The notes under the pieces are model-generated. The model was not told the DNA's origin. It saw nothing but the letters and a program-made list of their open reading frames with translations, and ran no database searches. Shown here one piece after another: positions 1,188-58,027 of a DNA stretch of 64,000 nt. The DNA comes from an uncultured Bacteroidales bacterium. Its GTDB lineage: Bacteria > Bacteroidota > Bacteroidia > Bacteroidales > Muribaculaceae. How positions within the stretch are numbered: the first letter of the stretch is position 1; every line of letters starts with the position of its first letter. Location: positions 6,513 through 70,512 of the forward strand of contig CAMWHE010000004.1 of NCBI GenBank assembly GCA_947173955.1, written 5' to 3'. The position numbers and the translations under genes were made by a program.

Positions 1188-1234
1188 GTTTAACAAAAAT
1201 CCCCTGTTTATAACTAAAGTTCAAAAATTACTGT

Positions 1235-1242
1235 TAATTTTG
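1235..1242 (+). promoter_or_regulatory. Bacteroides-type -7 promoter element (TAATTTTG)
   Basis: Exact match to the TAnnTTTG consensus, just upstream of the riboswitch core. Confidence 0.45.
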
Positions 1243-1380
1243 CATCGGAAATATAAGAAATCAAACGGGAACCATGTGAAAATCATGGACTGTCGCGCAA
1301 CCGTAAGGCTTTCAATGCAGATAAAGCCGAAGTCGGGAACCGGGGTGGTTGGAATTCCACCATTAGTTATATCCTCGCAT
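1243..1380 (+). promoter_or_regulatory. Cobalamin (B12) riboswitch
   Basis: The core at 1267-1308, GGGAACCAUGUGAAAAUCAUGGACUGUCGCGCAACCGUAAGG, closely parallels the E. coli btuB leader core GGGAAUCCAGUGCGAAUCUGGAGCUGACGCGCAGCGGUAAGG, including the CCAUG/CAUGG hairpin. A B12-box-like AAGCCGAAGUCGGGAACC lies at 1324-1341. The element sits directly 5' of a lipoprotein gene. The outer boundaries are approximate. Confidence 0.75.
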
Positions 1381-2807: not shown

Positions 2808-3668
2808 TCACCACCATGGGTTCTTATAGTGAACCTTAAATTCACCGTCATTCGAAAAATAGACCTCTTCCCCGGATATATAGCTCTCCCATTCGGGACT
2901 AGAATATATTTCATTTGGAAATAGACCGCCACTACCGACATCAAAGTCAAAAGTAAAAGGTAAGCGCCCGTCACCCCATATACATAACTTTGGAGAACTA
3001 GAATCTCCATCCTTTTTCCAAACGCCTACAAATGTACGGTTTCGATAGCCATCTGCCACACCATCTCTATCATCTACACGCAAAACATTATCATTTCCGT
3101 CAATATAGGCATCAGCCGACCATACCCCCCGGAAGATTCCACTAATTTCGGGACGTCCATTTTCCACAAAATAATATTCTCCTATTATTTTATATAAGTC
3201 TTCGGTATAAAATTCCTTTTCACTTTCAAGATAATAAGTGAAGTCAAAATAGTGAATATCTGTCACCCTGATTATCCCGTAAAAATCGCATATATTACTC
3301 TTAACTTTAGAACGTCCTCTGACAAAATAGAAAGTTTTTCCCAGTCGCACATATCCGGGATAAAAGTACATATCAATACGTTTATAGTTTTTACCCAGCA
3401 CACCGACAGCGGGAATTACCCGAAAGAAAAAAGCACTATCAATCTTTAACTCTCCGGAACGGAACATCGGCATGCGATCCTTAGATTGAACTCCGCCTAT
3501 TGACTTAATACTTTCAAGCTTTTTAAATTCATCTCCAAAATATACTTGATCAGATGAAATTTTATCGCGACCTACTATGTCATAATAACTGTCATGACAC
3601 AATTCCTCTGCATGACAAACGCCAAACGATAAAAATATACCTGTCAGAAATTTTATAAAAGTCTTCAT
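2808..3668 (-). CDS. Hypothetical secreted protein (low-GC orphan)
   Basis: Long ORF. The internal start gives MKTFIKFLTGIFLSFGVCHAEE, which reads as a signal peptide. The gene is visibly AT-rich. I recognise no family. Confidence 0.6.
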   Translation of the reverse strand: MKTFIKFLTGIFLSFGVCHAEELCHDSYYDIVGRDKISSDQVYFGDEFKKLESIKSIGGVQSKDRMPMFRSGELKIDSAFFFRVIPAVGVLGKNYKRIDMYFYPGYVRLGKTFYFVRGRSKVKSNICDFYGIIRVTDIHYFDFTYYLESEKEFYTEDLYKIIGEYYFVENGRPEISGIFRGVWSADAYIDGNDNVLRVDDRDGVADGYRNRTFVGVWKKDGDSSSPKLCIWGDGRLPFTFDFDVGSGGLFPNEIYSSPEWESYISGEEVYFSNDGEFKVHYKNPWW

Positions 3669-3805: not shown

Positions 3806-4480
3806 ATGGAAGTTGTCTACGAGGATAATCACATCATAATCGTCAATAAGGCTCCGGGCGAGATAGTGCAGGGAGACAAGACCGGCGACACTCCGCTGAG
3901 CGAGACTGTTGCTCAATGGATCAAAGAGAAATACGGTAAACCGGGAAATGTGTTTCTCGGAGTGGTACACCGCCTGGACCGACCGGTAGGTGGCCTGGTA
4001 GTATTTGCCAAGACATCGAAAGCACTGACAAGGCTAAACGAGATGTTCCGCAACGGGGATGTTCATAAAACCTACTGGGCCATCAGCCGTAACAAGCCGC
4101 CGAAAGAGGAGGACACGCTGACCCACTACATCACGACGACCGAGAAGAACAATAAATCGTATGCATCGGCGACTCCACGCGCCGGAGCGAAGGAGGCCCG
4201 GCTACACTACAGGCATCTGTCGTCGACAGACCGTTACCATCTGATCGAGGTCAACCTGCTGACCGGCCGCAAACACCAGATTCGCGTACAGCTGGCGGCT
4301 ATAGGGTGTCCGATCAAAGGAGATCTGAAATATGGCGACAAGCGGAGTAATCCGGACGGCAGCATATCGCTGCTGGCACGGCATATCGAGTTTATTCACC
4401 CTGTTTCGGGCAAGGAGATTTCGGTAACAGCACCTGTACCGGCCGACGACAATTTGTGGAACGCACTTTCAGCTCAATAA
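3806..4480 (+). CDS. RluA-family RNA pseudouridine synthase
   Basis: Contains the catalytic motif HRLDRPVGGLVVFAKT and GRKHQIRVQLA. Confidence 0.85.
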   Translation: MEVVYEDNHIIIVNKAPGEIVQGDKTGDTPLSETVAQWIKEKYGKPGNVFLGVVHRLDRPVGGLVVFAKTSKALTRLNEMFRNGDVHKTYWAISRNKPPKEEDTLTHYITTTEKNNKSYASATPRAGAKEARLHYRHLSSTDRYHLIEVNLLTGRKHQIRVQLAAIGCPIKGDLKYGDKRSNPDGSISLLARHIEFIHPVSGKEISVTAPVPADDNLWNALSAQ

Positions 4481-5531: not shown

Positions 5532-8015
5532 TTAATTGCCATTACCTCCTCCGGCAGCGGGACGAGAAGTATCGAGGTCGTCGTTGGATGCCGCACGGGA
5601 GGCCTTCTTCACATAGGCGTTGAGTGAGCCGAAACGATAGTTGATGGATATGCCGACCATAAAGCGGTTATAGCTGTAATTGACAGATTTACCGGTGCGG
5701 CCGCCATTCATGTACTCCGACTTCCATGTTGTCGTATAGGGACCGAACGGATTGCTGATAAATAGGGTCGTTGTCAGGCGATCCTCCTTAAGGAAGTTGC
5801 GGGTAAGCTGAAGTCCGTGGTTGATATTTGAGGGGGTGAAGATATTTTTACTGTAAAGGCTGCTGAACCCGTTGTACCATCCATAGACAGTCAGTCCGAG
5901 CGTCAGCTTCCAGGGAAGCTCCTGTGAAAAACGGGTGTACATATTCGCGCCCCATCCGGACTCGCTCAGTTCGGGATTAAGAGCATCGGCGGCATACCGG
6001 ATAGAGCTATGAGATACGCCGAAATTCATCATCCAGTTGGTCTTCTGGCTGATCATCCAGCGAAAATAACCGTTAAGATTGAACCGACGGCTCTGGCCTA
6101 TATTTTCAGATGTCGAATACATGATGTCATCCTGGATCCAGTTGACGGAGTGTACGCCTGTATTGCTCATGCGGTAAGACATCGAGAAATCGGCATTGAA
6201 TTTCGGCTTGATTATATTATAATTGAGCGAGATAGTGTGGTAAAGGGCGCTTGACAAGTTGGGATTACCATAGCTGACTGAAGTAGGAGTCTCAACAACA
6301 GTAGGATTGAGTTCGTCAATGCCCGGGCGGCTGATACGTGTGTTGTAGGACAGCTTGATTGTGTTGGCGTCATTTATAGTATAGTTGACGGCAGCCATCG
6401 GCACCCAGTCGCTGAGATTGGAAGCGAAATTGTTGCCGGCCTCTACCTTATCCTTTGATGTAAGACGGGAGAACTCATAACGGAGACCTGCGCGGAGAGT
6501 GACCTTTCCGAACTTAGAACGCCAGTCGAAGTAGGCGGCGCCGATAGATGTGCGGTGGGTATATTTTGTGGGAATGAGCGAATCTTCGGGCTTACCCACA
6601 TATTCGCGCTCACCTTTGGCATTGTTGTCGCGGAATATGAATTTACCGCCGAGGTCGAATTTATGATTGTCGTTGATAGGGCGCGTCCAGTCGAGCTGAC
6701 CGGTATGCTCCATAAATCGGGAGTGATCCCAGGCATTGATACCGGAGTAGTCGAACAGTGGATTTATCATATTCTCATACTCCGATTCAGAATCATTGTC
6801 AGAGCCGTTGGTGGAAATCATGTAGGAGAGTGTGATCATTTCGTTGGGACGGCGTGTAAGACGCTGATAATTGAATGACCCGTTGAAATCCATATAGCTA
6901 TATTTCGACTTAAAGTCATTGTTATCAAACGAATATATTAGATTACCGGCAGGATCATACATGGCTGATGTGCTCTTGGAGGGATTGTCGGAGCCATAAG
7001 TATAGCCACCGAACTCAGCCGTAAACAGGTTGAGGGAGTCCATCTCATAGCTCATCTCAAACTGGACGTAGCCGCCATTGCCGGATGACCGGCGCCAGTT
7101 GGTCTCAGATGACGAGACAAGACGATTGCCGTTGCTGTCATAGGTCATGTCGGACTCCGTGCGGCTCTTGTAGACGCGCCCGGTATTGCCGAAATAACCG
7201 CCGTTGACAGAGAAAGTCACCTTGTCAATCTGCGATGTGATCCAGACAAACGGCTGAGGGATAGGATTGTTTGTACCCATCCATAACCCCACCGAGCCCA
7301 TGACACCGCGGATAGCCGTATTCTGCATCGTAACAATATTGAGAATAGCACCGACACCCTCGGCATCCTCGCGGGCTCCGGGATCGGTGATAACTTCAAT
7401 TTTCTTAATAGTAGAAGCGGGAATAGCCTTGAATATATCCTTGGCATTATTGGTAAACGAACTGTTGGGACGGCCGTTCTTATAGATTTTGAAGTCGGAA
7501 GATCCGTTGACCTTGATTGTGCCGTCGGCCTCAACAGATACGAGAGGTACTTTCCTGAGAATCTCGTTGACAGTCGATGTCTTTGAATCATTGTCGGCCT
7601 GCACATCATATCCGATGCGGTCAATTTCCTTAGTCACAAGCGGACGCTGAGCCGAGACAGTCACTTCCGCCAGCATATTTTCAGCATCTGAAATGATTAT
7701 ATCGCCGAGGGAGGCGACGGGGGAGGCGACACTAACTGAAAAATCGACAACCGATACGGACTTTCCGACCGCCACGGCAGAAAGCCGGTAGCTACCTGCC
7801 GAAGGAAGCGTAAGGGAGAAATCGCCTTCATCGGAGGATGTAGCGAGGACTACAGGTTTTATAGTATCAGTTTCTGTAAAAATGCGGAGAGTGGCAAAGG
7901 GTTCTGTCTCGCCTGTCTGAGATATCAGCCGGCCGTTGACGCTAAAGTCGTCGGCCAGCATCAGGAGCGCCGAGAAAAGGTAGATCGATAACCAGAAAAT
8001 ACGCTTTAAAAACAT
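5532..8015 (-). CDS. Outer membrane beta-barrel family protein (TonB-dependent-receptor-like) with an N-terminal carboxypeptidase-regulatory-like domain
   Basis: 827 aa with a signal peptide, an N-terminal CarbopepD-like segment (FSVNGRL...TLRIF), a plug-like region (TVSAQRP..KEIDRIGYDV), and a barrel ending in an aromatic-rich terminal strand. Confidence 0.8.
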   Translation of the reverse strand: MFLKRIFWLSIYLFSALLMLADDFSVNGRLISQTGETEPFATLRIFTETDTIKPVVLATSSDEGDFSLTLPSAGSYRLSAVAVGKSVSVVDFSVSVASPVASLGDIIISDAENMLAEVTVSAQRPLVTKEIDRIGYDVQADNDSKTSTVNEILRKVPLVSVEADGTIKVNGSSDFKIYKNGRPNSSFTNNAKDIFKAIPASTIKKIEVITDPGAREDAEGVGAILNIVTMQNTAIRGVMGSVGLWMGTNNPIPQPFVWITSQIDKVTFSVNGGYFGNTGRVYKSRTESDMTYDSNGNRLVSSSETNWRRSSGNGGYVQFEMSYEMDSLNLFTAEFGGYTYGSDNPSKSTSAMYDPAGNLIYSFDNNDFKSKYSYMDFNGSFNYQRLTRRPNEMITLSYMISTNGSDNDSESEYENMINPLFDYSGINAWDHSRFMEHTGQLDWTRPINDNHKFDLGGKFIFRDNNAKGEREYVGKPEDSLIPTKYTHRTSIGAAYFDWRSKFGKVTLRAGLRYEFSRLTSKDKVEAGNNFASNLSDWVPMAAVNYTINDANTIKLSYNTRISRPGIDELNPTVVETPTSVSYGNPNLSSALYHTISLNYNIIKPKFNADFSMSYRMSNTGVHSVNWIQDDIMYSTSENIGQSRRFNLNGYFRWMISQKTNWMMNFGVSHSSIRYAADALNPELSESGWGANMYTRFSQELPWKLTLGLTVYGWYNGFSSLYSKNIFTPSNINHGLQLTRNFLKEDRLTTTLFISNPFGPYTTTWKSEYMNGGRTGKSVNYSYNRFMVGISINYRFGSLNAYVKKASRAASNDDLDTSRPAAGGGNGN

Positions 8016-27789: not shown

Positions 27790-28576
27790 CCATCCCTACC
27801 CCGCCGTAGCCGTGCGCAAAGCAGTCTATTTCATATCCGACCTCCATCTTGGGGCGACTTATCTCGACGATCCGCTGCAATATGAGCGCCGGGTAGTCAG
27901 ATGGTTGCGGTCGATCGAGGAGGATGCGGCCGAGCTATATCTGCTCGGCGACATCCTCGACTACTGGTATGAATACCGCACGGTAGTGCCCCGCGGCTAC
28001 ACACGATTTCTCGGTCAGCTCGGCATGATGGCCGACGCGGGGGTCAAAATCACATGGATAATCGGCAATCACGACATATGGATCAACGACTATCTGCCTG
28101 AGGAACTCGGCATAACGGTAGTCGACGGCACGATAATCAAAGAGATCCTCGGCAAGCGCTTTTTCCTTGCCCACGGAGACGCCCTCGGCAAGCTGCCGCG
28201 AGGATTCCGGTTTATCAGATGGATGTTCCGCAACAAATTCCTTCAGCACCTCTACTCGGCCGTACATCCCCGATGGACGGTGCCGTTCGCTCACCGCTGG
28301 TCAGCCCATTCGCGCAACTTTTCTGAGGAAATTCCACAATTTGCCGGTCCGGACAAAGAGCCTTTCGTAGCATTCTCAGAAGAGTATCAGCGCGACCACC
28401 CTGATCAGGCGATAGACTTCTTCGTCTTGGGACACAGGCACATACTGCTCGACTATCCCCTCACACACGGTGGCCGACTGATAGTGCTCGGCGACTGGAT
28501 CCATCATTTTTCCTACGGAAAATGGGACAGCAAAAATTTCATTTTGCAATGCTTCGATGACAAATTGAATCCGTAA
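27770..28576 (+). CDS. lpxH: UDP-2,3-diacylglucosamine diphosphatase
   Basis: Metallophosphoesterase motifs FISDLHLG, GDILD, GNHD and GHRH are present. The listed TTG start at 27770 overlaps the previous gene. An in-frame GTG at 27812 (MRKAVYFISDLHLG) is an equally plausible start. Confidence 0.85.
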   Translation: MNSDFFNHPYPAVAVRKAVYFISDLHLGATYLDDPLQYERRVVRWLRSIEEDAAELYLLGDILDYWYEYRTVVPRGYTRFLGQLGMMADAGVKITWIIGNHDIWINDYLPEELGITVVDGTIIKEILGKRFFLAHGDALGKLPRGFRFIRWMFRNKFLQHLYSAVHPRWTVPFAHRWSAHSRNFSEEIPQFAGPDKEPFVAFSEEYQRDHPDQAIDFFVLGHRHILLDYPLTHGGRLIVLGDWIHHFSYGKWDSKNFILQCFDDKLNP

Positions 28577-28810
28577 CTACTGATATTAACAATATTTCAC
28601 ATTTATCACTATCGCCCCACGAAAATTTTCATAATATTGATATATAGCATTTTAACCCACATACATAGATTAAAAACAGGTTGAGTGATTAAAAACTATG
28701 TTAGAAAACATGTTTTTTTATTTGGCAGCGTAAGAAAAAAGGGCAACCTTTGCATCACAAACCTATAACAATCTTTTTTACCTTAGAAATTGTACCTATT
28801 GGAAACCTAT

Positions 28811-28841
28811 AAAAAGGGACTTCGTGATGAAGTCCCTTTTT
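28811..28841. terminator. Strong bidirectional terminator hairpin
   Basis: 12-bp stem AAAAAGGGACTT / AAGTCCCTTTTT with a 7-nt loop and A/T runs on both sides. Confidence 0.7.
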
Positions 28842-28937
28842 ATGTTATCAGCCGGAAGAAGCTTCCTCATGTTCATATTCTGATGTGTATTGCTCGCACA
28901 TGCTCTGCAAGTGCGATAGGGGTAAGAAAAATGCAAC

Positions 28938-29279
28938 GTGGGGGCTCACCTTTGGCTTAACCGCCACGCTACTATGCCGACACCTGCCCGGCAGGTGTCT
29001 CTACTTTGTCTCCTCGCCCCTGGCGGATGGAAATGCGGAATAGCTATAATCGGCGTCCCGAAGAGGGACGCCCTGAGAGAGCTGCGACAGGTACCGGGCA
29101 CATCTCGCTACGCTCGATGTACCGCGGCTACTGTAAATCGGCGCTCTCTTCGGAGCGCCACATGGCGACTGAAAGATATCAGTAACTGCAATCGGATTGC
29201 ACGATATCGCGTTGCCGACGCTCATTTTCGCCATACTTCCCTGCTCCCCAGACACTGACGTACGCCTGAGGTTGCCCAC
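28938..29279 (+). other. GC-rich, hairpin-dense non-coding block (possible structured RNA or recombination-site arm), family unknown
   Basis: It contrasts sharply in composition with its AT-rich surroundings. Stems: 28979-28999 (9 bp), 29052-29072 (8 bp), 29080-29086/29123-29129 (7 bp with one U.G), 29140-29159 (7 bp), and a nested 29164-29216 stem with one G.U. The wobble pairs only work on the + strand. The two ORFs across it do not look like proteins. Confidence 0.35.
28977..29040 (+). repeat. 64-bp direct repeat, copy A
   Basis: Matches 31139-31202 at 56 of 64 positions with no indels. It contains the hairpin GACACCTGC-CCG-GCAGGTGTC. Confidence 0.9.
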
Positions 29280-29397
29280 AATAACGCGCCTTTATGACGT
29301 TTGACCTCATATTATTTTCGCAACCATCATCTTTTTACATCGACCCACTTTTTGCTTGTTGGGACAAAAATCGTATCTTTACGAAAATATAATCAAT

Positions 29398-29742
29398 ATG
29401 GAATCTCAGTATATCGAAATAGACCCGAACGATAAAATTATATGCGTGAATATCAGCAGCTCTTTTGATAAAAAAGAACGTGCAGATAATTATGATCGGG
29501 CACGGCATTATTGGAAAGTTTCACCTAAAAGAGCTAATAATGCTAATCTTGTATTGGCTACCGCACATGGAATAGTAATAGCTGTATTCAAGCCGTTCAA
29601 ATGGTATCAGACAAACTCCATCAAATACCCGGGAAGATATGAATTTGATGGCGAAGAAGTAAAAGATTCACCATATTTAGGAAAATGTATATGGAATGTA
29701 GTCAACAAACATACAGTCTCCATTGCTTATATAAACTTGTAA
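29398..29742 (+). CDS. Hypothetical small protein (114 aa) in the low-GC cassette
   Basis: The ORF starts MESQYIEIDPNDK.... The start is the ATG at 29398, preceded by the ATCTTTACGAAAA motif. I recognise no family. Confidence 0.55.
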   Translation: MESQYIEIDPNDKIICVNISSSFDKKERADNYDRARHYWKVSPKRANNANLVLATAHGIVIAVFKPFKWYQTNSIKYPGRYEFDGEEVKDSPYLGKCIWNVVNKHTVSIAYINL

Positions 29743-29956
29743 CAAGGAAAATTTCACCGTACTAAACACGTACTGTTAAGACACCAAACATGATAATATG
29801 AGTATGGTCTACGATCTTTACGAAAACTCCAATATGCCCAAGTGTTTGCTGTTATAAAAAATAGTGGAATTGGGATATCTATATCACACGATCAAAAATT
29901 AGCATTAGGGGCGATCGGGAAAAAGCTCCAAGCTGTTTTGGGCAAAAAAGAATAGT

Positions 29957-31069
29957 ATGACAAAAATTCTCTCTCAAAATTACAGCTATGCCAATAATTC
30001 GAGCAATGAACTTATAAAAGTTTCTACTGCTCAGCGTAATGAAAAATATTTTTGTCCTGTATGCGGCGAACTTATGATCCCTCATATGGGAAAAATTCGA
30101 CGTTGGCATTTCGTTCATAAAAACACAGAAAACTGTTCATATGAATCATATCTCCATCTGTTAGCGAAATTCAAGATAAGAGAGACTTTTCTTAAATCCG
30201 AGCATTTTCTGCTTTCATATAAAGCAAAAGCACTTTGTTCTCATGAGTGCCCTTTTATCACTTCTCCCAAATGCGAAGATGAAAAACCTGTTCAATTCGA
30301 TTTGCGTAGATACTATGATAAATGCGAGATAGAAGCTTCCTATTATCAATACCGAGCTGACTTACTATTATCCTCTTCTACAAACTCTAATCGACCACCT
30401 GTGTTAATTGAAATTAGGGTTACACATAAATGTACTGAAGACAAAATTAATAGTGGTGCTCGTATTATTGAAATCCCAATTCAATCTGAAGAACAAATTG
30501 ATCATATTGTTGAAAGCGGCAAATTAAAAGCAGTAAGAGCTAATCAATTTAGCCATTTAGACGAAAATAAAATAACCTTATACAATTTCAATAAAATAGA
30601 ATCTTTTGATCCGATTGGATCATTCGATGAAGACGAAGAGTATTTTAGTCGAAAGAATACAATTGTATTTTGGCTGAATCAACAAGGCAAATTCTGCTCA
30701 TTTGATTGTCACTGTTACGAAGTTCGTGACAAACTACCACCAAATGTTCATTATTATATAACCCAAATTGCGACCCCATTCAAAGAGATTTTTCAAGAAT
30801 TCTCTAAGCGAGGAGTAAAAATTCGTAATTGTTTCTTATGCAAGTTTAGTAAACAAGACTATTGGGGCGACTGGATTTGCATTCTATATAAGAGACTTAG
30901 TTTACCACGTAAGCCTTCTCCATATAGCGCTACATCATGTTCCAATTACATGGAAAATTTTATGACTTCGCAAAATGCGGTATCAATTGCACACCCTCAA
31001 AATACGGAACAATCTGATTCTACTCCCCCCTGTAAGTTCTATTACCATATATGTGAGGATATACTATGA
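29957..31069 (+). CDS. CoiA-like zinc-ribbon / PD-(D/E)xK-type nuclease family protein with a Cys-rich C-terminal extension
   Basis: The N-terminus YFCPVCGELMIPHMGKIRRWHFVHKNTENCSYESYLHLLAK parallels the CoiA pattern CPxCG...HFAH....C...SE.H. YRADLLL...VLIEIRVTH parallels the D...E.Q.S core. The C-terminal half has several Cys clusters of unknown family. Confidence 0.6.
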   Translation: MTKILSQNYSYANNSSNELIKVSTAQRNEKYFCPVCGELMIPHMGKIRRWHFVHKNTENCSYESYLHLLAKFKIRETFLKSEHFLLSYKAKALCSHECPFITSPKCEDEKPVQFDLRRYYDKCEIEASYYQYRADLLLSSSTNSNRPPVLIEIRVTHKCTEDKINSGARIIEIPIQSEEQIDHIVESGKLKAVRANQFSHLDENKITLYNFNKIESFDPIGSFDEDEEYFSRKNTIVFWLNQQGKFCSFDCHCYEVRDKLPPNVHYYITQIATPFKEIFQEFSKRGVKIRNCFLCKFSKQDYWGDWICILYKRLSLPRKPSPYSATSCSNYMENFMTSQNAVSIAHPQNTEQSDSTPPCKFYYHICEDIL

Positions 31070-31138
31070 AGTATTGGTAAAATCATGTTATACTCTCATT
31101 ACCATACAACATCATTATAAGCCAACAAATCAAGGAAC

Positions 31139-31202
31139 CCGACACCTGCCGAGCAGGTGTCTCTCCTCTGTCTCCTCTCCCGTGGGGGATGGAAATGCGA
31201 AA
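31139..31202 (+). repeat. 64-bp direct repeat, copy B, abutting the msrAB stop codon
   Basis: See copy A. The offset is exactly 2162 bp. The hairpin stem is conserved and two of the differences fall in its loop (CCG versus CGA). Confidence 0.9.
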
Positions 31203-31203
31203 A

Positions 31204-32154
31204 TTAGTGGGAGGGGGTGACGAGGGGGATGAAGGAGGCGTAGCCGGCGGAGGCCATTTCTTCGAGGGGAATGAACCGGAGGGCTGCGGAGTTGATACAG
31301 TAGCGGAGGCCACCGGTCTCGACGGGGCCGTCGGGGAATACATGACCGAGATGGGAGTCGGCGCGGGCTGAGCGTACCTCGGTGCGATGGCGCCCATAGC
31401 TGTGATCGTCGTGCTCGGTCAGCAGAGACGTGTCGATCGGACGGCTGAATGCGGGCCATCCGCACCCGGAATCATATTTGTCGGATGAGACAAAGAGAGG
31501 GGTGCCGTCAACGATATCGACGTAGATGCCGGGACGGAATTCATGGTCATATTCGTTGATAAACGGTCGTTCGGTGGCACTGTTCTGTGTCACCTCCCAC
31601 TGAAGCGGGGTCAGACGTTGACGCAGCTGCTCGCGGCTTTCGGTTTTGGCAGACTTTTTCATCTCTCTGACCTCCTTGAAAAGAGCCGGATTGACATGGC
31701 AGTAGCCGTCGGGATTCTTTACGAGATAGTCCTGATGATAGTCCTCGGCAGGATAAAAGTTTTTCAAGGGGAGAAATTCGACAGCGAGCGGTTCGGTGTG
31801 GCGACGCTGCAGGGTAGCGAGCTCGGCCTCAATGACCGGGACATCGGTAGGGTCAGTATAGTAGATGCCTGTGCGATACTGCGTACCGGTATCATTGCCC
31901 TGACGGTTGAGTGACAGTGGATCGATGCTACGGAAATAGATGCGCAGGATTGTCGACAATCCGATTTCCTCAGGGTCATAATCGACTTTGACAGTCTCGG
32001 CCGCGTGGGTCAGCCCGGTGCAGACTTGCTGATATGTGGGCGAGGGAATCAGGCTGTTGGCATAGCCCGCAGTGGCTTTGTCGACTCCGGGAATCAGCGA
32101 CATCAGGTGAGCGGTACCCCAGAAGCATCCGCCGGCAAGGTATATCGTCTTCAT
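31204..32154 (-). CDS. msrAB: Bifunctional peptide-methionine (S)/(R)-S-oxide reductase MsrA-MsrB fusion
   Basis: The N-terminus carries GGCFWG (MsrA). The C-terminus carries CGWPAF and [11 protein letters not shown] (MsrB). Confidence 0.92.
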
Positions 32155-55781: not shown

Positions 55782-58027
55782 TTCACTTCTACGATTTTAA
55801 CAGCATCGATCAGAGCATGATTGGTCGACAGATTCATGTTTTCATTCTCCGGTTCAAAGGAGATCGTCAGCAGATGCGGACCTTTATCAAGATTGATCCT
55901 ATGCGAGGTGGAATATCCCCAGTCATTCCAGTTGCCGACACCGCGCTGAGGCATAACCACAGCTCCGACGCGTTGTCCGTCGACACTGAGAGTACGGATG
56001 GCAGCCTTGTTCTCAGTATTGACCGAGCCATTGCCATTTGCATAGCGGAGACTGACAATATATTCACCATCATGATCTACAGTAACAGGTACATTTATGC
56101 TGCCGGTCTTATGATCGGTCTCTATAAAGCCGTCACCGGTAAAACCCTCGATAACGCCGTCGGCAGGATAGGCCACTTCCGCAGAAGCCATGACTGTTGT
56201 TTCGTCAGGCATATCGGTCATTGTGTATTTACGGTTTGACAGAGGCTCTGAGGCAAATGATTCCGTACCGTCCTCATCCACAGCAATCAGCTGATACTCT
56301 CCCGGCTGAGATGCGTCGAAGGATGTGGTACGGGTCGTTGCCACCCGTTCCCCGTCGACAAGGACTACATAATGGTCTACATATTCTATCGGATTCCACT
56401 CAAATATCGAACCGCTCAGACGGGTAACGGGAGTCAGCGGCGCCTTCTTATTGGCGACGCGATTCACCTTCATCTCAGGCAGATCATTGTCAGCCATGAC
56501 AATATCAATTTTGAGATGGCCTTTAGCATTAGCCGGTATAAACGGCGTTGCTTCCTTTCCATTAATTTTAAATGACTTGATCTTATTGCCGTAACCCGAT
56601 ATCGAAATATCAAGGACTGCATCACGATACCTGAATCCTGTGAGCGAGCGGCTGGCTGCCAGAGCTTTCGGTACAAACGGATGGAAAGCCAGACCGTCTT
56701 TTTCAAAATCAATACCGAAAAGGATCTTATGAGTAAGCGCTATATTGCCGGCAAGACACCATAGCATATTGCTTGAATTGAGCTGAGTGGCAATATCGCC
56801 GTTATCGAGTACGAAATTCTCTTTATTCGTGCAGAAAAGCGCCGCCGGACGCACTACCGAGCCAATTGCTTCCATCACTCCCTGTTCATTGCCGACTTTC
56901 GCATTGGCAAGCGCCCACCATGATGCTACCCATGGCCACAGAGCATTGTTATGATACGGGGGCATATCAGCTATCTGCGGATAAAAGATTGCCACACCGA
57001 AAGGTGTTGTCGGGTTATTCTCAGTAATGGTTTTAGCTCGCTCCGGGGAAGCTATATTCCACAGGATAGCCAGCGATTCTCCGAGCGTCTCGGCTCGCGG
57101 ATTCAGTATCTTATGGTCGCGGCCATAGCGATACATCGCGTAATAGCCTTTATCATCCATCCAGAGATATTTATTGATTGCATCGGCTATGGACTGGGCT
57201 CGTTCCGCATAGGTCTTCGCCTCTTGTTTATGACCAAGCTCTTCAGCTATTTCTGCAAGTACCTGCAACGCTTTCACATGTACAATAGATGTATTGAGCG
57301 TTTCGCTGGCAGCGATATCGGCCGTCTGCATCCAGCGCGGATGGCTCTGCTCACGCCAGTCGATAAACGAAGTCTCCCCTTTGACCAGACCGGTCGTCTC
57401 ATCAATAGCGACAAGTGCATCATCGTCGAGCGAGCGCTTGATTACCGGGTAGATGTATTCGAGCCACTGACGGTCGCCGGTAGCCTTATATACTTCGTAA
57501 GCGGCAACAGCCCATATTTCGCGGTCAGTCGATATCGGCCATGCCCCGCCACTGCCCGTATCCTGTATGATACGTCCTTCCGAATCAACCTTCTTCATCA
57601 GTGAAATGCGTGAGGCCTCAGGCTGCATATACGCCATGGAAAGCAATATCGAATAGCTGACATCACGGGTCCAAACGCCCCCCCATGCCTTACCGGTACG
57701 CAGAGTCGTGTCCGGCTCCACAGCATTGACCATCTCATCAAGACCAAGATTATATATAGCCTGATGCATCACATTCGGGGTTAATAAAGCCGGATATTCA
57801 GAAATATCATTCTGAAGAGTCCATTCCGGCTCGATCCCCATATAATAACCGGGCTGAGCACGATATGTAGAAACAATATGACCGGGAGAAACGGCTATCG
57901 CCTCATATTCGCCCTGTGTGACGGTATCGCCATGCCATGTGTAAGTGTCTGTCTTCACAATCACTTGCGCGGCTACGCCTGCCGGCACCGCGAGTGCCAG
58001 ACCGATAATCATTACCTGATATTTCAT
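55778..58027 (-). CDS. Secreted (alpha/alpha)6-barrel glycoside-hydrolase-like protein with a C-terminal CBM6/CBM35-like module
   Basis: Has a signal peptide and a central six-hairpin-glycosidase-like region (WGGVWTRDVSY, GGAWPISTDREIWAVAAYEVY). The C-terminus reads like a CBM6/35 (GDGFIE...YANGNG...GNWNDW). The GH family is not assigned. Confidence 0.65.
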   Translation of the reverse strand: MKYQVMIIGLALAVPAGVAAQVIVKTDTYTWHGDTVTQGEYEAIAVSPGHIVSTYRAQPGYYMGIEPEWTLQNDISEYPALLTPNVMHQAIYNLGLDEMVNAVEPDTTLRTGKAWGGVWTRDVSYSILLSMAYMQPEASRISLMKKVDSEGRIIQDTGSGGAWPISTDREIWAVAAYEVYKATGDRQWLEYIYPVIKRSLDDDALVAIDETTGLVKGETSFIDWREQSHPRWMQTADIAASETLNTSIVHVKALQVLAEIAEELGHKQEAKTYAERAQSIADAINKYLWMDDKGYYAMYRYGRDHKILNPRAETLGESLAILWNIASPERAKTITENNPTTPFGVAIFYPQIADMPPYHNNALWPWVASWWALANAKVGNEQGVMEAIGSVVRPAALFCTNKENFVLDNGDIATQLNSSNMLWCLAGNIALTHKILFGIDFEKDGLAFHPFVPKALAASRSLTGFRYRDAVLDISISGYGNKIKSFKINGKEATPFIPANAKGHLKIDIVMADNDLPEMKVNRVANKKAPLTPVTRLSGSIFEWNPIEYVDHYVVLVDGERVATTRTTSFDASQPGEYQLIAVDEDGTESFASEPLSNRKYTMTDMPDETTVMASAEVAYPADGVIEGFTGDGFIETDHKTGSINVPVTVDHDGEYIVSLRYANGNGSVNTENKAAIRTLSVDGQRVGAVVMPQRGVGNWNDWGYSTSHRINLDKGPHLLTISFEPENENMNLSTNHALIDAVKIVEVK

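Follow-up and report, generated by a model that had tools for sequence, protein, structure and literature searches.

REP sequences are defined by their many dispersed copies per genome, and REP families are usually species-specific. In the IS200/IS605 elements and their miniature derivatives (PATEs), the DNA is recognised in single-stranded form, on one specific strand, through a subterminal hairpin and its 5' guide tetranucleotide. The GTAG REPs, BIMEs and REPINs of E. coli and Pseudomonas are mobilised by RAYT/TnpA_REP Y1 transposases (PMC3733652, PMC6006769). In the canonical REP, GT[AG]G stands 0-2 nt from a GC-rich foot (PMC6006769, PMC3733652), and GTAG REPs typically have G.T pairs in the stem, form clusters and head-to-head dimers, and occupy sites downstream of convergent genes (PMC3733652). 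In a 2013 survey the CGTC type was the only one seen in Bacteroidetes (PMC3733652), and RAYT subclasses 2.4 and 2.6, with REPs, have been reported in Bacteroidetes (PMC6006769).

The block described here lies in a 64,000-nt stretch of an uncultured Muribaculaceae genome, analysed as a whole and called the window below. It sits between lpxH and an sRNA gene on the plus strand and msrAB on the minus strand, the two sides being convergent. The features of this gap, in order along the plus strand, are:

28637-28843, plus: BTnc060-like sRNA gene that follows lpxH and includes a terminator hairpin; the block starts beyond it
28937-28972, minus: weak tagged hairpin, GTAG at 28972-28969 followed by the stem CGTGG/CCACG (28968-64/28941-37) and two pairs
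28977-29040, minus: left copy of a 64-nt repeat, holding the 9-bp hairpin 28979-28999
29052-29072, minus: 8-bp hairpin, H2'
29090-29173, minus: conserved core H2-linker-H1, as matched by a covariance model from which the window sequence was left out
29094-29127, minus: conserved hairpin H1, from covariance-model alignment, RNAalifold, pair counts and a strict descriptor scan
29128-29139, minus: conserved linker, CTACTGTAAATC on the plus strand, from alignments
29140-29159, minus: 7-bp hairpin H2, conserved in structure and not in sequence
29164-29216, plus: long nested hairpin of 6+6+6 bp with one G.U on the plus strand, window-specific
29248-29290, plus: possibly half of an H1-like unit, decayed and oppositely oriented, bordering the AT-rich cassette
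29291-31138, plus: AT-rich two-gene cassette
31139-31202, minus: right copy of the 64-nt repeat, with hairpin 31141-31161, directly 3' of the msrAB stop codon (31204)

An earlier note, made from the letters alone, had picked out a GC-rich, hairpin-dense block in AT-rich surroundings, and this picture of a real, unassigned element is supported. The GC content is 0.57 over 28900-29290, against 0.325 over 28577-28899 and 0.344 over 29291-31138. The neighbouring coding genes, at 0.535-0.57, have the same GC as the block, which is conspicuous only because both flanks are AT-rich, the left one being the sRNA gene and the right one a foreign cassette. Every stem that had been named could be paired, namely the 9-bp stem 28979-87/28991-99, the 8-bp stem 29052-59/29065-72, the 7-bp stem 29080-86/29123-29 with its one G.U, the inner stem 29100-04/29116-20, the 7-bp stem 29140-46/29153-59, and the nested stem 29164-69/29211-16 with GATATC/GATATC and TGCAAT/ATTGCA. 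The suggested closing helix (GTGGG/CCCAC plus CTCA/TGAG) pairs as sequence and appears in the plus-strand minimum-energy fold, but comparison with homologues gave it no support. When perfect GC-rich hairpins are defined by a stem of at least 7 and a loop of 3-8, three of the nine distinct ones in the whole 64 kb fall within 28979-29159 (Poisson P ~9e-6), and a fourth is the right copy of the repeat; the hairpins of the block other than H1 have 7-9 perfect pairs. Folding of 28930-29290 gave -135.4 kcal/mol (z -3.28) on the plus strand and a better -156.0 kcal/mol (z -4.44) on the minus strand, energies that none of 100 shuffled controls reached on either strand. No family of Rfam 15 matches 28900-29290, whether at the gathering score or at E <= 10, and none matches the homologues of the block; ARAGORN found no tRNA or tmRNA in it. 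A likeness of H1 to group II intron domain 5 was also considered and rejected, the bulge being on the wrong strand, with no AGC triad and no Rfam match.

The comparison covered 42 loci with an ORF2 homologue, 80 lpxH loci and the msrAB-side contigs L125-127. With the whole block as query, neither blastn nor nhmmer found a match in the 42 ORF2 or the 80 lpxH loci; homology first became visible through L125-127 and then through a covariance model, which was built from L125, L126, L114, L110, L104 and L118 only. The top match of this model in the 64 kb is 29090-29173 on the minus strand (27.1 bits, E 5.8e-6), with no non-standard pair; a second match, at 57660-57737, lies inside a 749-aa ORF and was set aside as chance. 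On the model-fitted alignment 94.9% of the pairing cells are paired, against 76.9% in shuffles, and pair counts show 13 of the 18 core pairs changed on both sides (11-13 across the counts and RNAalifold). RNAalifold independently recovers both core helices. In H2 the pair counts show six of the seven pairs changed on both sides across homologues, in agreement with the model alignment and RNAalifold. Where the earlier note had proposed to judge the block by covariation among its homologues, two helices do covary, within 29090-29173, the part of the block that has homologues in other Muribaculaceae.

Read on the minus strand, the core consists of H2, a single-stranded CGAUUUAC(C)AGUAR linker and the 11-bp H1 with an invariant U.G. 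H1 runs GTAG, CCG(c)GG U ACAUC, loop, GAUGU G CCCGG, that is, 11 pairs with one bulged C, one U.G wobble and a 5-bp foot of C and G only. The U.G pair exists on the minus strand only and is invariant in all seven sequences of the RNAalifold alignment. The loops of the homologues are GNRA on the minus strand, with GACA in H2 of L114/L118 and a change from GAAA to GACA in the H1 apex loop of L125/L126, and the minus strand folds better by 4.7-12.4 kcal/mol in all four lineages (z -3.7 to -5.6). The plus strand that the earlier note had inferred for an RNA is not supported by this comparison: both G.U pairs cited for it lie in helices without comparative support, and the conserved helix 29094-29127 competes with one of these, 29080-86/29123-29. 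Between genomes whose LpxH is just 54% identical, the single-stranded linker still shows 80-90% conservation. A pseudoknot in which the linker would pair with the 3' segment was considered and, judged by eye, is not conserved. Outside the core, 29038-29119 aligns to positions 55-134 of the L125 tail (68.6% over 86 nt; E 6e-4 in a small database), and the half unit at 29248-29290 gives a weak match to the linker and H1 of L114 (78.6% over 28 nt, E 0.24) that is a hint only. No homologue was found for hairpin 28937-28972, which forms the 3' terminal stem in the minus-strand minimum-energy fold, and the nested hairpin 29164-29216 has no counterpart in the homologues.

The reading we favour, with about as much confidence as doubt, is that the block is a REP/BIME-like mosaic of small GTAG-tagged palindromes in a variable intergenic gap. 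Three GTAG tags stand 0-1 nt 5' of minus-strand hairpins, at 29131-28 before H1, at 29004-01 before 28999-28979 (with a 1-nt spacer) and at 28972-69 before 28968-37. As in GTAG REPs, the tag is unpaired and adjoins a GC-rich foot, within the 0-2 nt of the canonical GT[AG]G; the hairpins rise from GC-rich basal stems and are short or, where long, interrupted by a bulge or mismatch (stems of 7-11 bp that include a G.T pair or bulge, under variable loops), and sub-variants differ by complementary stem changes. The units are extragenic, clustered between convergent transcription units, and arranged both in tandem and head-to-head as inverted dimers, and their presence varies among related genomes. 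The linker combines the minus-strand GTAG foot tag of H1 with a plus-strand GTAA(ATC) before H2, which places the two hairpins head-to-head, and H2' with the adjacent GATTATAGCTATTCCGC (minus strand) is a tandem paralogue of H2 and linker. The two 64-nt repeats (28977-29040 and 31139-31202) are 88% identical with sharp boundaries; the tag of the right copy has degenerated to GGAG, and this copy is terminator-like on the minus strand. They would be two copies of one unit, and neither a target-site duplication nor att sites.

Similar units occur in the relatives. Head-to-head doublets of the form GTAG-CCGCGGTT..AACCGCGG were found at no fewer than three intergenic sites within ~10 kb of L104/L110/L114, and L104/L110 have one doublet more than L114, within a 216-nt insertion. 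These doublets share with the window the tag, the CCGCG(G) foot of H1 (of the window and of L114), the head-to-head order and the intergenic position. They are short (8-bp stem, 3-nt loop), amount to 5-6 units at 3-4 sites in ~10 kb, and are polymorphic between samples, whereas the window has longer units that differ from one another and lie in one gap only. Another family, GTAG-GGTCGCGAC, is present in L063. Of the 216 distinct GC-rich hairpins counted overall, 25 have a GTA[AG] tag before them, where 10.3 would be expected.

If the block is such a mosaic, the relevant strand would be the window minus strand, i.e. that of msrAB, on which each unit, a GC-rich hairpin at whose foot a GTAG (GTAA in relatives) stays unpaired, set in tandem or head-to-head, would fold as single-stranded DNA. 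A Y1 HUH transposase of the RAYT type would then recognise the tag and the hairpin foot, and we propose that such recognition constrains the foot and tag but lets the upper stems and loops drift, with compensation. Units would be duplicated and reshuffled locally, and when transcribed from the msrAB side they may serve as 3' stem-loops that end transcription or stabilise the mRNA between the convergent units. We further propose that the repeated sequence makes the gap prone to recombination, which may explain the AT-rich, defence-like cassette beside the block. Strand-specific recognition of a hairpin together with a 5' tetranucleotide, as proposed for the block, is also what likens it to IS200/IS605 ends and PATEs; unlike these, the block lacks tnpA and tnpB, a matching pair of left-end and right-end hairpins, and defined ends. 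Should the reading hold, GTAG-tagged palindromic repeats exist in the Muribaculaceae, a dominant and little-studied gut family, and they would build mosaic, recombination-prone gaps beside conserved genes, which would help to explain metagenomic assembly breaks and foreign, defence-like cassettes at such gaps.

The block also departs from GTAG REPs. The window shows one core (by the model), the 64-nt unit twice and no tagged hairpin beyond 28979-29004, which is the only GTA[AG]-tagged hairpin with at least eight pairs in the 64 kb, so a high-copy REP is ruled out for this stretch. No Y1 (RAYT) transposase gene was seen in the window or the loci by tblastn with two approximate query sequences, a result of value as a lead only. 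H2 lacks a canonical tag, and the relatives have GTAA instead of the canonical GT[AG]G. Finally, conservation of the core at a single orthologous locus extends across genera, and its fixed position together with the unusually conserved linker, set against the usual species-specificity of REP families, is a pattern that fits a locus-specific functional RNA.

This leads to the strongest of the alternatives, which we hold to be possible though a good deal less than probable: that the core (29173-29090, minus) is a new trans-acting or protein-binding sRNA of Muribaculaceae, convergent with the BTnc060-like sRNA and possibly extending to a shared bidirectional terminator (28843-28809), with the remaining block as lineage-specific decoration. 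The neighbouring sRNA matches RF04184 (57.4 bits, E 1.5e-7, under the gathering score) and is conserved behind lpxH in ~30 Muribaculaceae lpxH loci (25 distinct downstream sequences). Conserved structure with covariation, as looked for in an sRNA gene, was found in the core, and RNAalifold recovered the two helices, with their many compensatory changes, unaided. The covariation, the U.G invariant on one strand only and the GNRA loops fit an RNA equally well, and the minus strand folds better in all four lineages; covariation is also expected for REP sub-families. The linker is conserved despite the diverged LpxH, and the core keeps its genomic position, after lpxH and the sRNA, in deeply diverged genomes. 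Like the Bacteroides BTnc sRNAs of Rfam, the block is a short structured intergenic Bacteroidales element, here convergent with a neighbouring sRNA gene, but it differs from them in having neither an Rfam match nor a recognisable promoter and in being sporadic and variable in orientation; since no Rfam family matches, a core sRNA would be new.

Several observations weigh against the sRNA. The core is present in L104/110/114, L118, L120, L124 and L070 and absent in most loci with lpxH and the sRNA (e.g. L046, L068, L077, L133), so that it is sporadic even among close relatives of its carriers. It lies on the plus strand in L124 and on the minus strand in most others, and two loci contain inverted pairs: L025, at 3991-4079 (plus) and 4210-4296 (minus), and L120, at 5873-5905 (plus) and 6020-6050 (minus). 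Its neighbours are wholly different, being the msrAB 3' end in L125, the ispD promoter in L114/L118 and the GC-rich block in the window; the upstream sequences of window, L125 and L114 are unrelated, neither strand has a conserved promoter upstream of the core, and no match to TTTG..TAnnTTTG lies in the vicinity of the block. The L125 core is 86% identical to that of L114 over 44 nt and much less like the window core, even though the msrAB of L125 falls in the same 90%-identity cluster as that of the window and the L114 LpxH is 54% identical to the window's; core similarity thus does not track species relatedness. The GTAG or GTAA foot tags of the homologues and the dispersed tagged palindromes suggest repeat DNA rather than a gene. 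Among the closest lpxH relatives (72-86% identity), nearly all contigs end in the conserved 3' half of the sRNA, so no close full-length homologue of the block was recovered, and the only such contig to pass the sRNA, L133 (72% LpxH identity), is without the block. Plasmid and phage collections held no match to it, and three pattern scans of viral contigs gave chance matches in coding DNA or nothing.

The two readings might be combined, a version we hold slightly more loosely than the sRNA itself: the ~85-nt core would be an undescribed structured sRNA family, tail-to-tail with the BTnc060-like sRNA and perhaps a recruited REP doublet, and would mark a gap that repeatedly takes defence-like cassettes. 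If an sRNA it is, a new conserved small RNA is paired with the BTnc060 family.

We think it improbable that the block is a recombination arm, with the 64-nt repeats as attL/attR-like sites left by an integrated circular element that carried 29041-31138. The integration would have been site-specific or homologous and the insert would comprise part of the block and the two ORFs. Sharp-edged direct repeats do bracket the AT-rich cassette; in the sister lineage L125-127, whose msrAB belongs to the 90%-identity cluster of the window's, this gene is followed directly by block-like sequence with no cassette, and in L025 the same hairpin family abuts another AT-rich cassette with an ORF2 homologue. 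On the other hand, no gene for an integrase or recombinase lies between the repeats or next to them, and these are just 88% identical. The sequence by msrAB in L125-127 matches 29038-29127, inside the supposed insert, with no copy like the right repeat, so the empty site is unlike a flank, one repeat and msrAB; a single repeat copy joining the flanks was not seen in these contigs, which end ~220 nt past msrAB. Six of the closest ORF2-homologue loci (L001, L002, L004, L005, L006, L008) are without flanking direct repeats, and the DNA common to ORF2-homologue loci is limited to 29846-31070. Much the same holds for a comparison with integron attC and att sites, which the block resembles in its imperfect palindromes beside a cassette and its direct repeats around foreign DNA, but from which it differs in having no integrase, no R''/R' core sites (by eye) and repeats of 88% identity, while cassette-free relatives lack a single-copy site. 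Of the recombination site that the earlier note had offered as an option, a role at the DNA level is favoured, and the att-like behaviour is not borne out.

The same note had preferred, as an RNA, a plus-strand leader or non-coding partner of ORF1 and ORF2, modelled on retron-like or toxin-antitoxin-like RNA-protein defence modules, which from our analysis would be very unlikely. ORF1 (29398-29742) is partly PD-T4-3-like (E 3e-12), thus resembling part of a defence protein, and ORF2 (29957-31069) has a CoiA_N domain; the block lies directly upstream of both in the same orientation, and its plus strand, too, folds better than shuffles. However, the block does not co-occur with ORF2 homologues, blastn matching none of the 42 loci and the covariance model one (L025, on both strands), and ORF1 accompanies an ORF2 homologue in one locus only, so they are not a conserved pair. 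The conserved core favours the minus strand, cores without any cassette occur in L114, L118 and L125-127, and the likely ORF1 promoter (29351-29381) is downstream of the block, a near-consensus Bacteroidetes promoter read from the sequence as TTTG at 29351-54, 19 nt, and TATCTTTA at 29374-81. The comparative data appear to have largely refuted this reading; the AT-rich cassette is without functional tie to the block, and a tempting 'structured RNA' link to the two adjacent ORFs is removed from the annotation as unsupported.

That the block is a decayed protein-coding fragment, e.g. the remaining 3' end of a former gene that converged on lpxH, deserves hardly any credence: its GC equals that of coding DNA of the genome, it is spanned by an ORF on each strand (106 aa on the plus, 92 aa on the minus strand), and a 50-aa gene is annotated in the MAG at 29033-29185, but the protein homologue by which the earlier note would have recognised such a gene was found neither by Pfam for any of eight block ORFs nor for the 92-aa ORF by an exhaustive HMMER search of 1.84 billion representative proteins, the called 50-aa protein is a singleton cluster, and the homologues show compensatory stem changes and loop indels that are not multiples of three. 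A six-frame concatenated protein query returned 8000 candidates without a match and missed even the MAG's own 50-aa protein, the search being saturated and uninformative. The call of a 50-aa gene within the block is probably spurious.

The GC-rich block downstream of lpxH proves to be a genuine structured element, conserved in part and without a database match, and it lies among the following features of the window.

27812-28576, + strand: lpxH
28637-28843, + strand: BTnc060-like small RNA with terminator hairpin (Rfam RF04184)
~28900-29290: GC-rich, hairpin-dense block
29398-29742, + strand: ORF1 of the AT-rich cassette
29957-31069, + strand: ORF2 of the AT-rich cassette, with a CoiA_N domain
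31139-31202: 64-nt sequence, 88% identical to 28977-29040 within the block
31204-32154, - strand: msrAB

All the stems paired by eye in the earlier note were confirmed, as was the contrast in composition, the block having 57% GC and the two flanks 33% and 34%. Since this GC content is that of the neighbouring coding genes, the block is host-like DNA between two AT-rich stretches. It holds three of the nine distinct perfect GC-rich hairpins of the entire 64 kb (Poisson P ~9e-6), and when 28930-29290 was folded on both strands, no shuffled control equalled either the plus strand (-135.4 kcal/mol, z -3.28) or the minus strand (-156.0 kcal/mol, z -4.44). In agreement with its description as unassigned, a scan against all of Rfam gave no family within the block even at E = 10, and ARAGORN found nothing in it. 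The only Rfam match of the window above its gathering score was a cobalamin riboswitch at 1219-1362 (+) (RF00174, 43.6 bits). The small RNA was matched by RF04184 at 57.4 bits (E 1.5e-7), far under the gathering score of 228.9; BTnc060 is expressed in B. thetaiotaomicron and its function is uncharacterised (bioRxiv 10.1101/2025.09.08.672848).

Relatives were sought in 80 metagenome lpxH loci, with LpxH identities to that of the window of at most 72%. The small RNA follows lpxH throughout the family, its 3' half (TTTGCATCACAAACCTAWAACAATCTTTTTTACCTTAGAAATTGTACCTATTGGAAACC and the terminator) being near-invariant in ~30 lpxH loci of Muribaculaceae, which represent 25 distinct downstream sequences, while the gene beyond it varies, often being ispD and never msrAB. 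Whole-block searches of the 80 loci gave no match. Three Logan contigs (L125-L127), with msrAB in the same 90% cluster as that of the window, lack the cassette and have a different GC-rich, hairpin-dense tail directly after msrAB, part of which matches a piece of DNA flanked by the small RNA and the ispD promoter in the lpxH-side loci L104, L110, L114 and L118. Because the contigs of the closest lpxH relatives (MAG and Logan; L128-L132) all terminate within the small RNA, in its conserved 3' half, a close full-length homologue of the block could not be recovered; L125-L127 terminate at hairpin H1, ~220 nt past msrAB. It appears that sequence shared across species or repeated breaks metagenome assemblies at this gap.

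A two-helix covariance model, built from an alignment (A7) of relatives only with the window left out and run unfiltered over the window, placed its best match on the minus strand, over 29090-29173 (27.1 bits, E 5.8e-6), the second-best match falling within a 749-aa ORF. In this match all pairs of the window are standard, with one bulged C. On the minus strand, this core runs from H2 (29140-29159; 7 bp) through the linker GAUUUACAGUAG to H1 (29094-29127; CCG(c)GG-U-ACAUC ... GAUGU-G-CCCGG). RNAalifold independently gave the same two helices, with double changes preserving 11 of 20 pairs. Another alignment was fitted to the model, and in some of its rows the same hairpins are read from the opposite strand; in it 94.9% of cells pair, compared with 76.9% after shuffling and 31-53% with partners slid, and both sides vary in 13 of 18 pairs. 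The earlier note had placed the structure, if an RNA, on the plus strand; for the core, the one part with comparative support, the call is reversed, since its U.G pair, invariant in 7/7 sequences, turns into a C.A mismatch on the plus strand, the minus-strand loops of relatives are GNRA, and the minus-strand fold is the more stable by 4.7-12.4 kcal/mol in 4/4 lineages.

The core is sporadic at its site, being absent from L046, L068, L077 and L133, where the next gene directly follows the small RNA. It is found in either orientation, with inverted pairs in L025 and L120, and its similarity is discordant with relatedness, the L125 core being far closer to that of the distant L114 than to that of the window. 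Within the window, H2' (29052-29072) and its trailing sequence form a tandem paralogue of H2 plus linker, and 29038-29119 aligns not with the best core copy of L125 but with a second module in the tail of that contig, so the region consists of modules arrayed in reshuffled form. All H1-type hairpins come after the tag (G/T)TA(A/G). A strict H1 descriptor (five G/C pairs, T.G and at least 3 further pairs), scanned over both strands of 1.16 Mb, returned 12 distinct matches, of which 9 are family members bearing this tag. Three minus-strand GTAG tags in the window abut hairpins, one of them within the 64-nt repeat, and over all loci GTA[AG] stands on 25 of 216 distinct GC-rich hairpins (10.3 expected).

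These features are best explained if the block is a mosaic of palindromes like REPs and their clusters (BIMEs), read on the minus strand and without a link to the ORFs beside it. Canonical REPs have a GC-rich foot with GT[AG]G at a distance of 0-2 nt, have stems with bulges or G.T pairs, and occur in clusters and head-to-head dimers downstream of convergent genes, with sub-families differing by complementary stem changes (PMC3733652, PMC6006769); the block matches this definition in tag, foot, bulge or G.T pair, clustering, head-to-head arrangement, convergent-gene site and complementary stem changes. Two subclasses of RAYT, the Y1 transposases by which REPs are mobilised, are known from Bacteroidetes (2.4 and 2.6; PMC6006769). 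However, the hallmark of REPs is many dispersed copies per genome, whereas the 64 kb of the window show a single core and two copies of one unit, and a search of the window and loci with approximate Y1 transposase queries saw none. That the core is instead a new minus-strand small RNA is possible, if on the doubtful side: a locus-specific RNA would equally account for its well-conserved linker and for its fixed position beside the small RNA across deeply diverged genomes, and the covariation, the U.G pair and the GNRA loops are compatible with RNA and with single-stranded DNA recognition alike. Given that dispersed copies are not visible in these 64 kb, the Y1 result, the fixed site and this non-discriminating covariation, we hold the REP-like reading with evenly balanced confidence.

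It is unlikely that the block is an att-like recombination arm. The 64-nt repeats have sharp boundaries, but L125-L127 have block-like sequence beside msrAB with no repeat copy, the locus has no recombinase gene, and flanking repeats are missing from six of the closest ORF2 loci. In our reading, a GTAG-tagged unit is present here in two copies, and the right-hand copy now forms the stem-loop that follows msrAB. The match of ORF1 (114 aa) to the PADLOC model PD-T4-3 (E 3e-12) covers the C-terminal half of the model, and ORF2 (370 aa), with many invariant cysteines, has a recognisable domain only at its N-terminus, a CoiA_N zinc ribbon; together they are probably a foreign, defence-like cassette (34% GC). 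The cassette stands at the edge of the hairpin mosaic, and in L025 the same hairpin family lies beside a distant ORF2 homologue, which suggests that mosaics of this kind may be prone to insertion.

That the block is a leader or partner RNA of the adjacent ORFs, an option of the earlier note, is very improbable. Homologues of ORF2 number 106 in Bacteroidales, and their contexts are unrelated; blastn of the block against the 42 loci fetched gave no match, the DNA shared with the window is confined to 29846-31070, and ORF1 adjoins an ORF2 homologue in one locus only. A putative near-consensus Bacteroidetes promoter (TTTG at 29351-54, 19 nt, TATCTTTA at 29374-81) lies between block and ORF1. A pseudogene is hardly credible, with no Pfam match to any of the eight ORFs of the block and no relative of its 92-aa minus-strand ORF among 1.84 billion representative proteins. 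The 50-aa hypothetical protein MDE5607901.1, annotated at 29033-29185 (+) inside the hairpin block in a public MAG (GCA_029051115.1, contig JAIDLL010000025.1), forms a cluster of its own in a collection of 15 billion proteins and is probably a spurious call.

Dispersed tagged palindromes in related contigs also favour the repeat-DNA reading. GTAG-CCGCGGTT..AACCGCGG doublets occupy at least three intergenic sites within ~10 kb of L104, L110 and L114, and L104 and L110 have one doublet more than L114, in a 216-nt insertion. This insertion (L104 ~6100-6315), flanked by the direct repeat CAAAAACTC, contains two GTAG-CCGCGGTT palindromes in inverted orientation, and samples of one species differ in its presence or absence. 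Elsewhere these palindromes form head-to-head doublets (L104 2911-2987 and 3694-3775) and a single unit (L114 7067-7083). A second species-specific family, GTAG-GGTCGCGAC..GTCGCGACC, has several copies in the 10.7-kb locus L063 (1425-1517, 4406-4425 and after the small RNA). In L025, 3660-4290 holds a ~270-nt near-perfect palindrome in which an inverted pair of H2-linker-H1 modules is combined with an inverted pair of GGTGTCT..AGACACC hairpins. On one side of it is a minus-strand gene of 196 aa (3066-3656), which from its translation by eye we take to be FKBP/SlyD-like, and on the other an AT-rich cassette opening with an HTH-like ORF and the distant ORF2 homologue; a GTAG-A-GACGCC hairpin at 3021-3044 is similar to the GTAG-A-GACACC unit of the window. 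After lpxH in L124 (5870-6290) and L120 (5840-6100), GC-rich hairpin blocks alternate with AT-rich repeats (TTAATTGCCGCGAATTATTCATTAAT...), and L124 has a 26-nt inverted repeat, GGTAACCCCCGGCTTTAGCCGTGGGG / CCCCACGGCTGAAGCCGGGGGTTACC, around ~100 nt.
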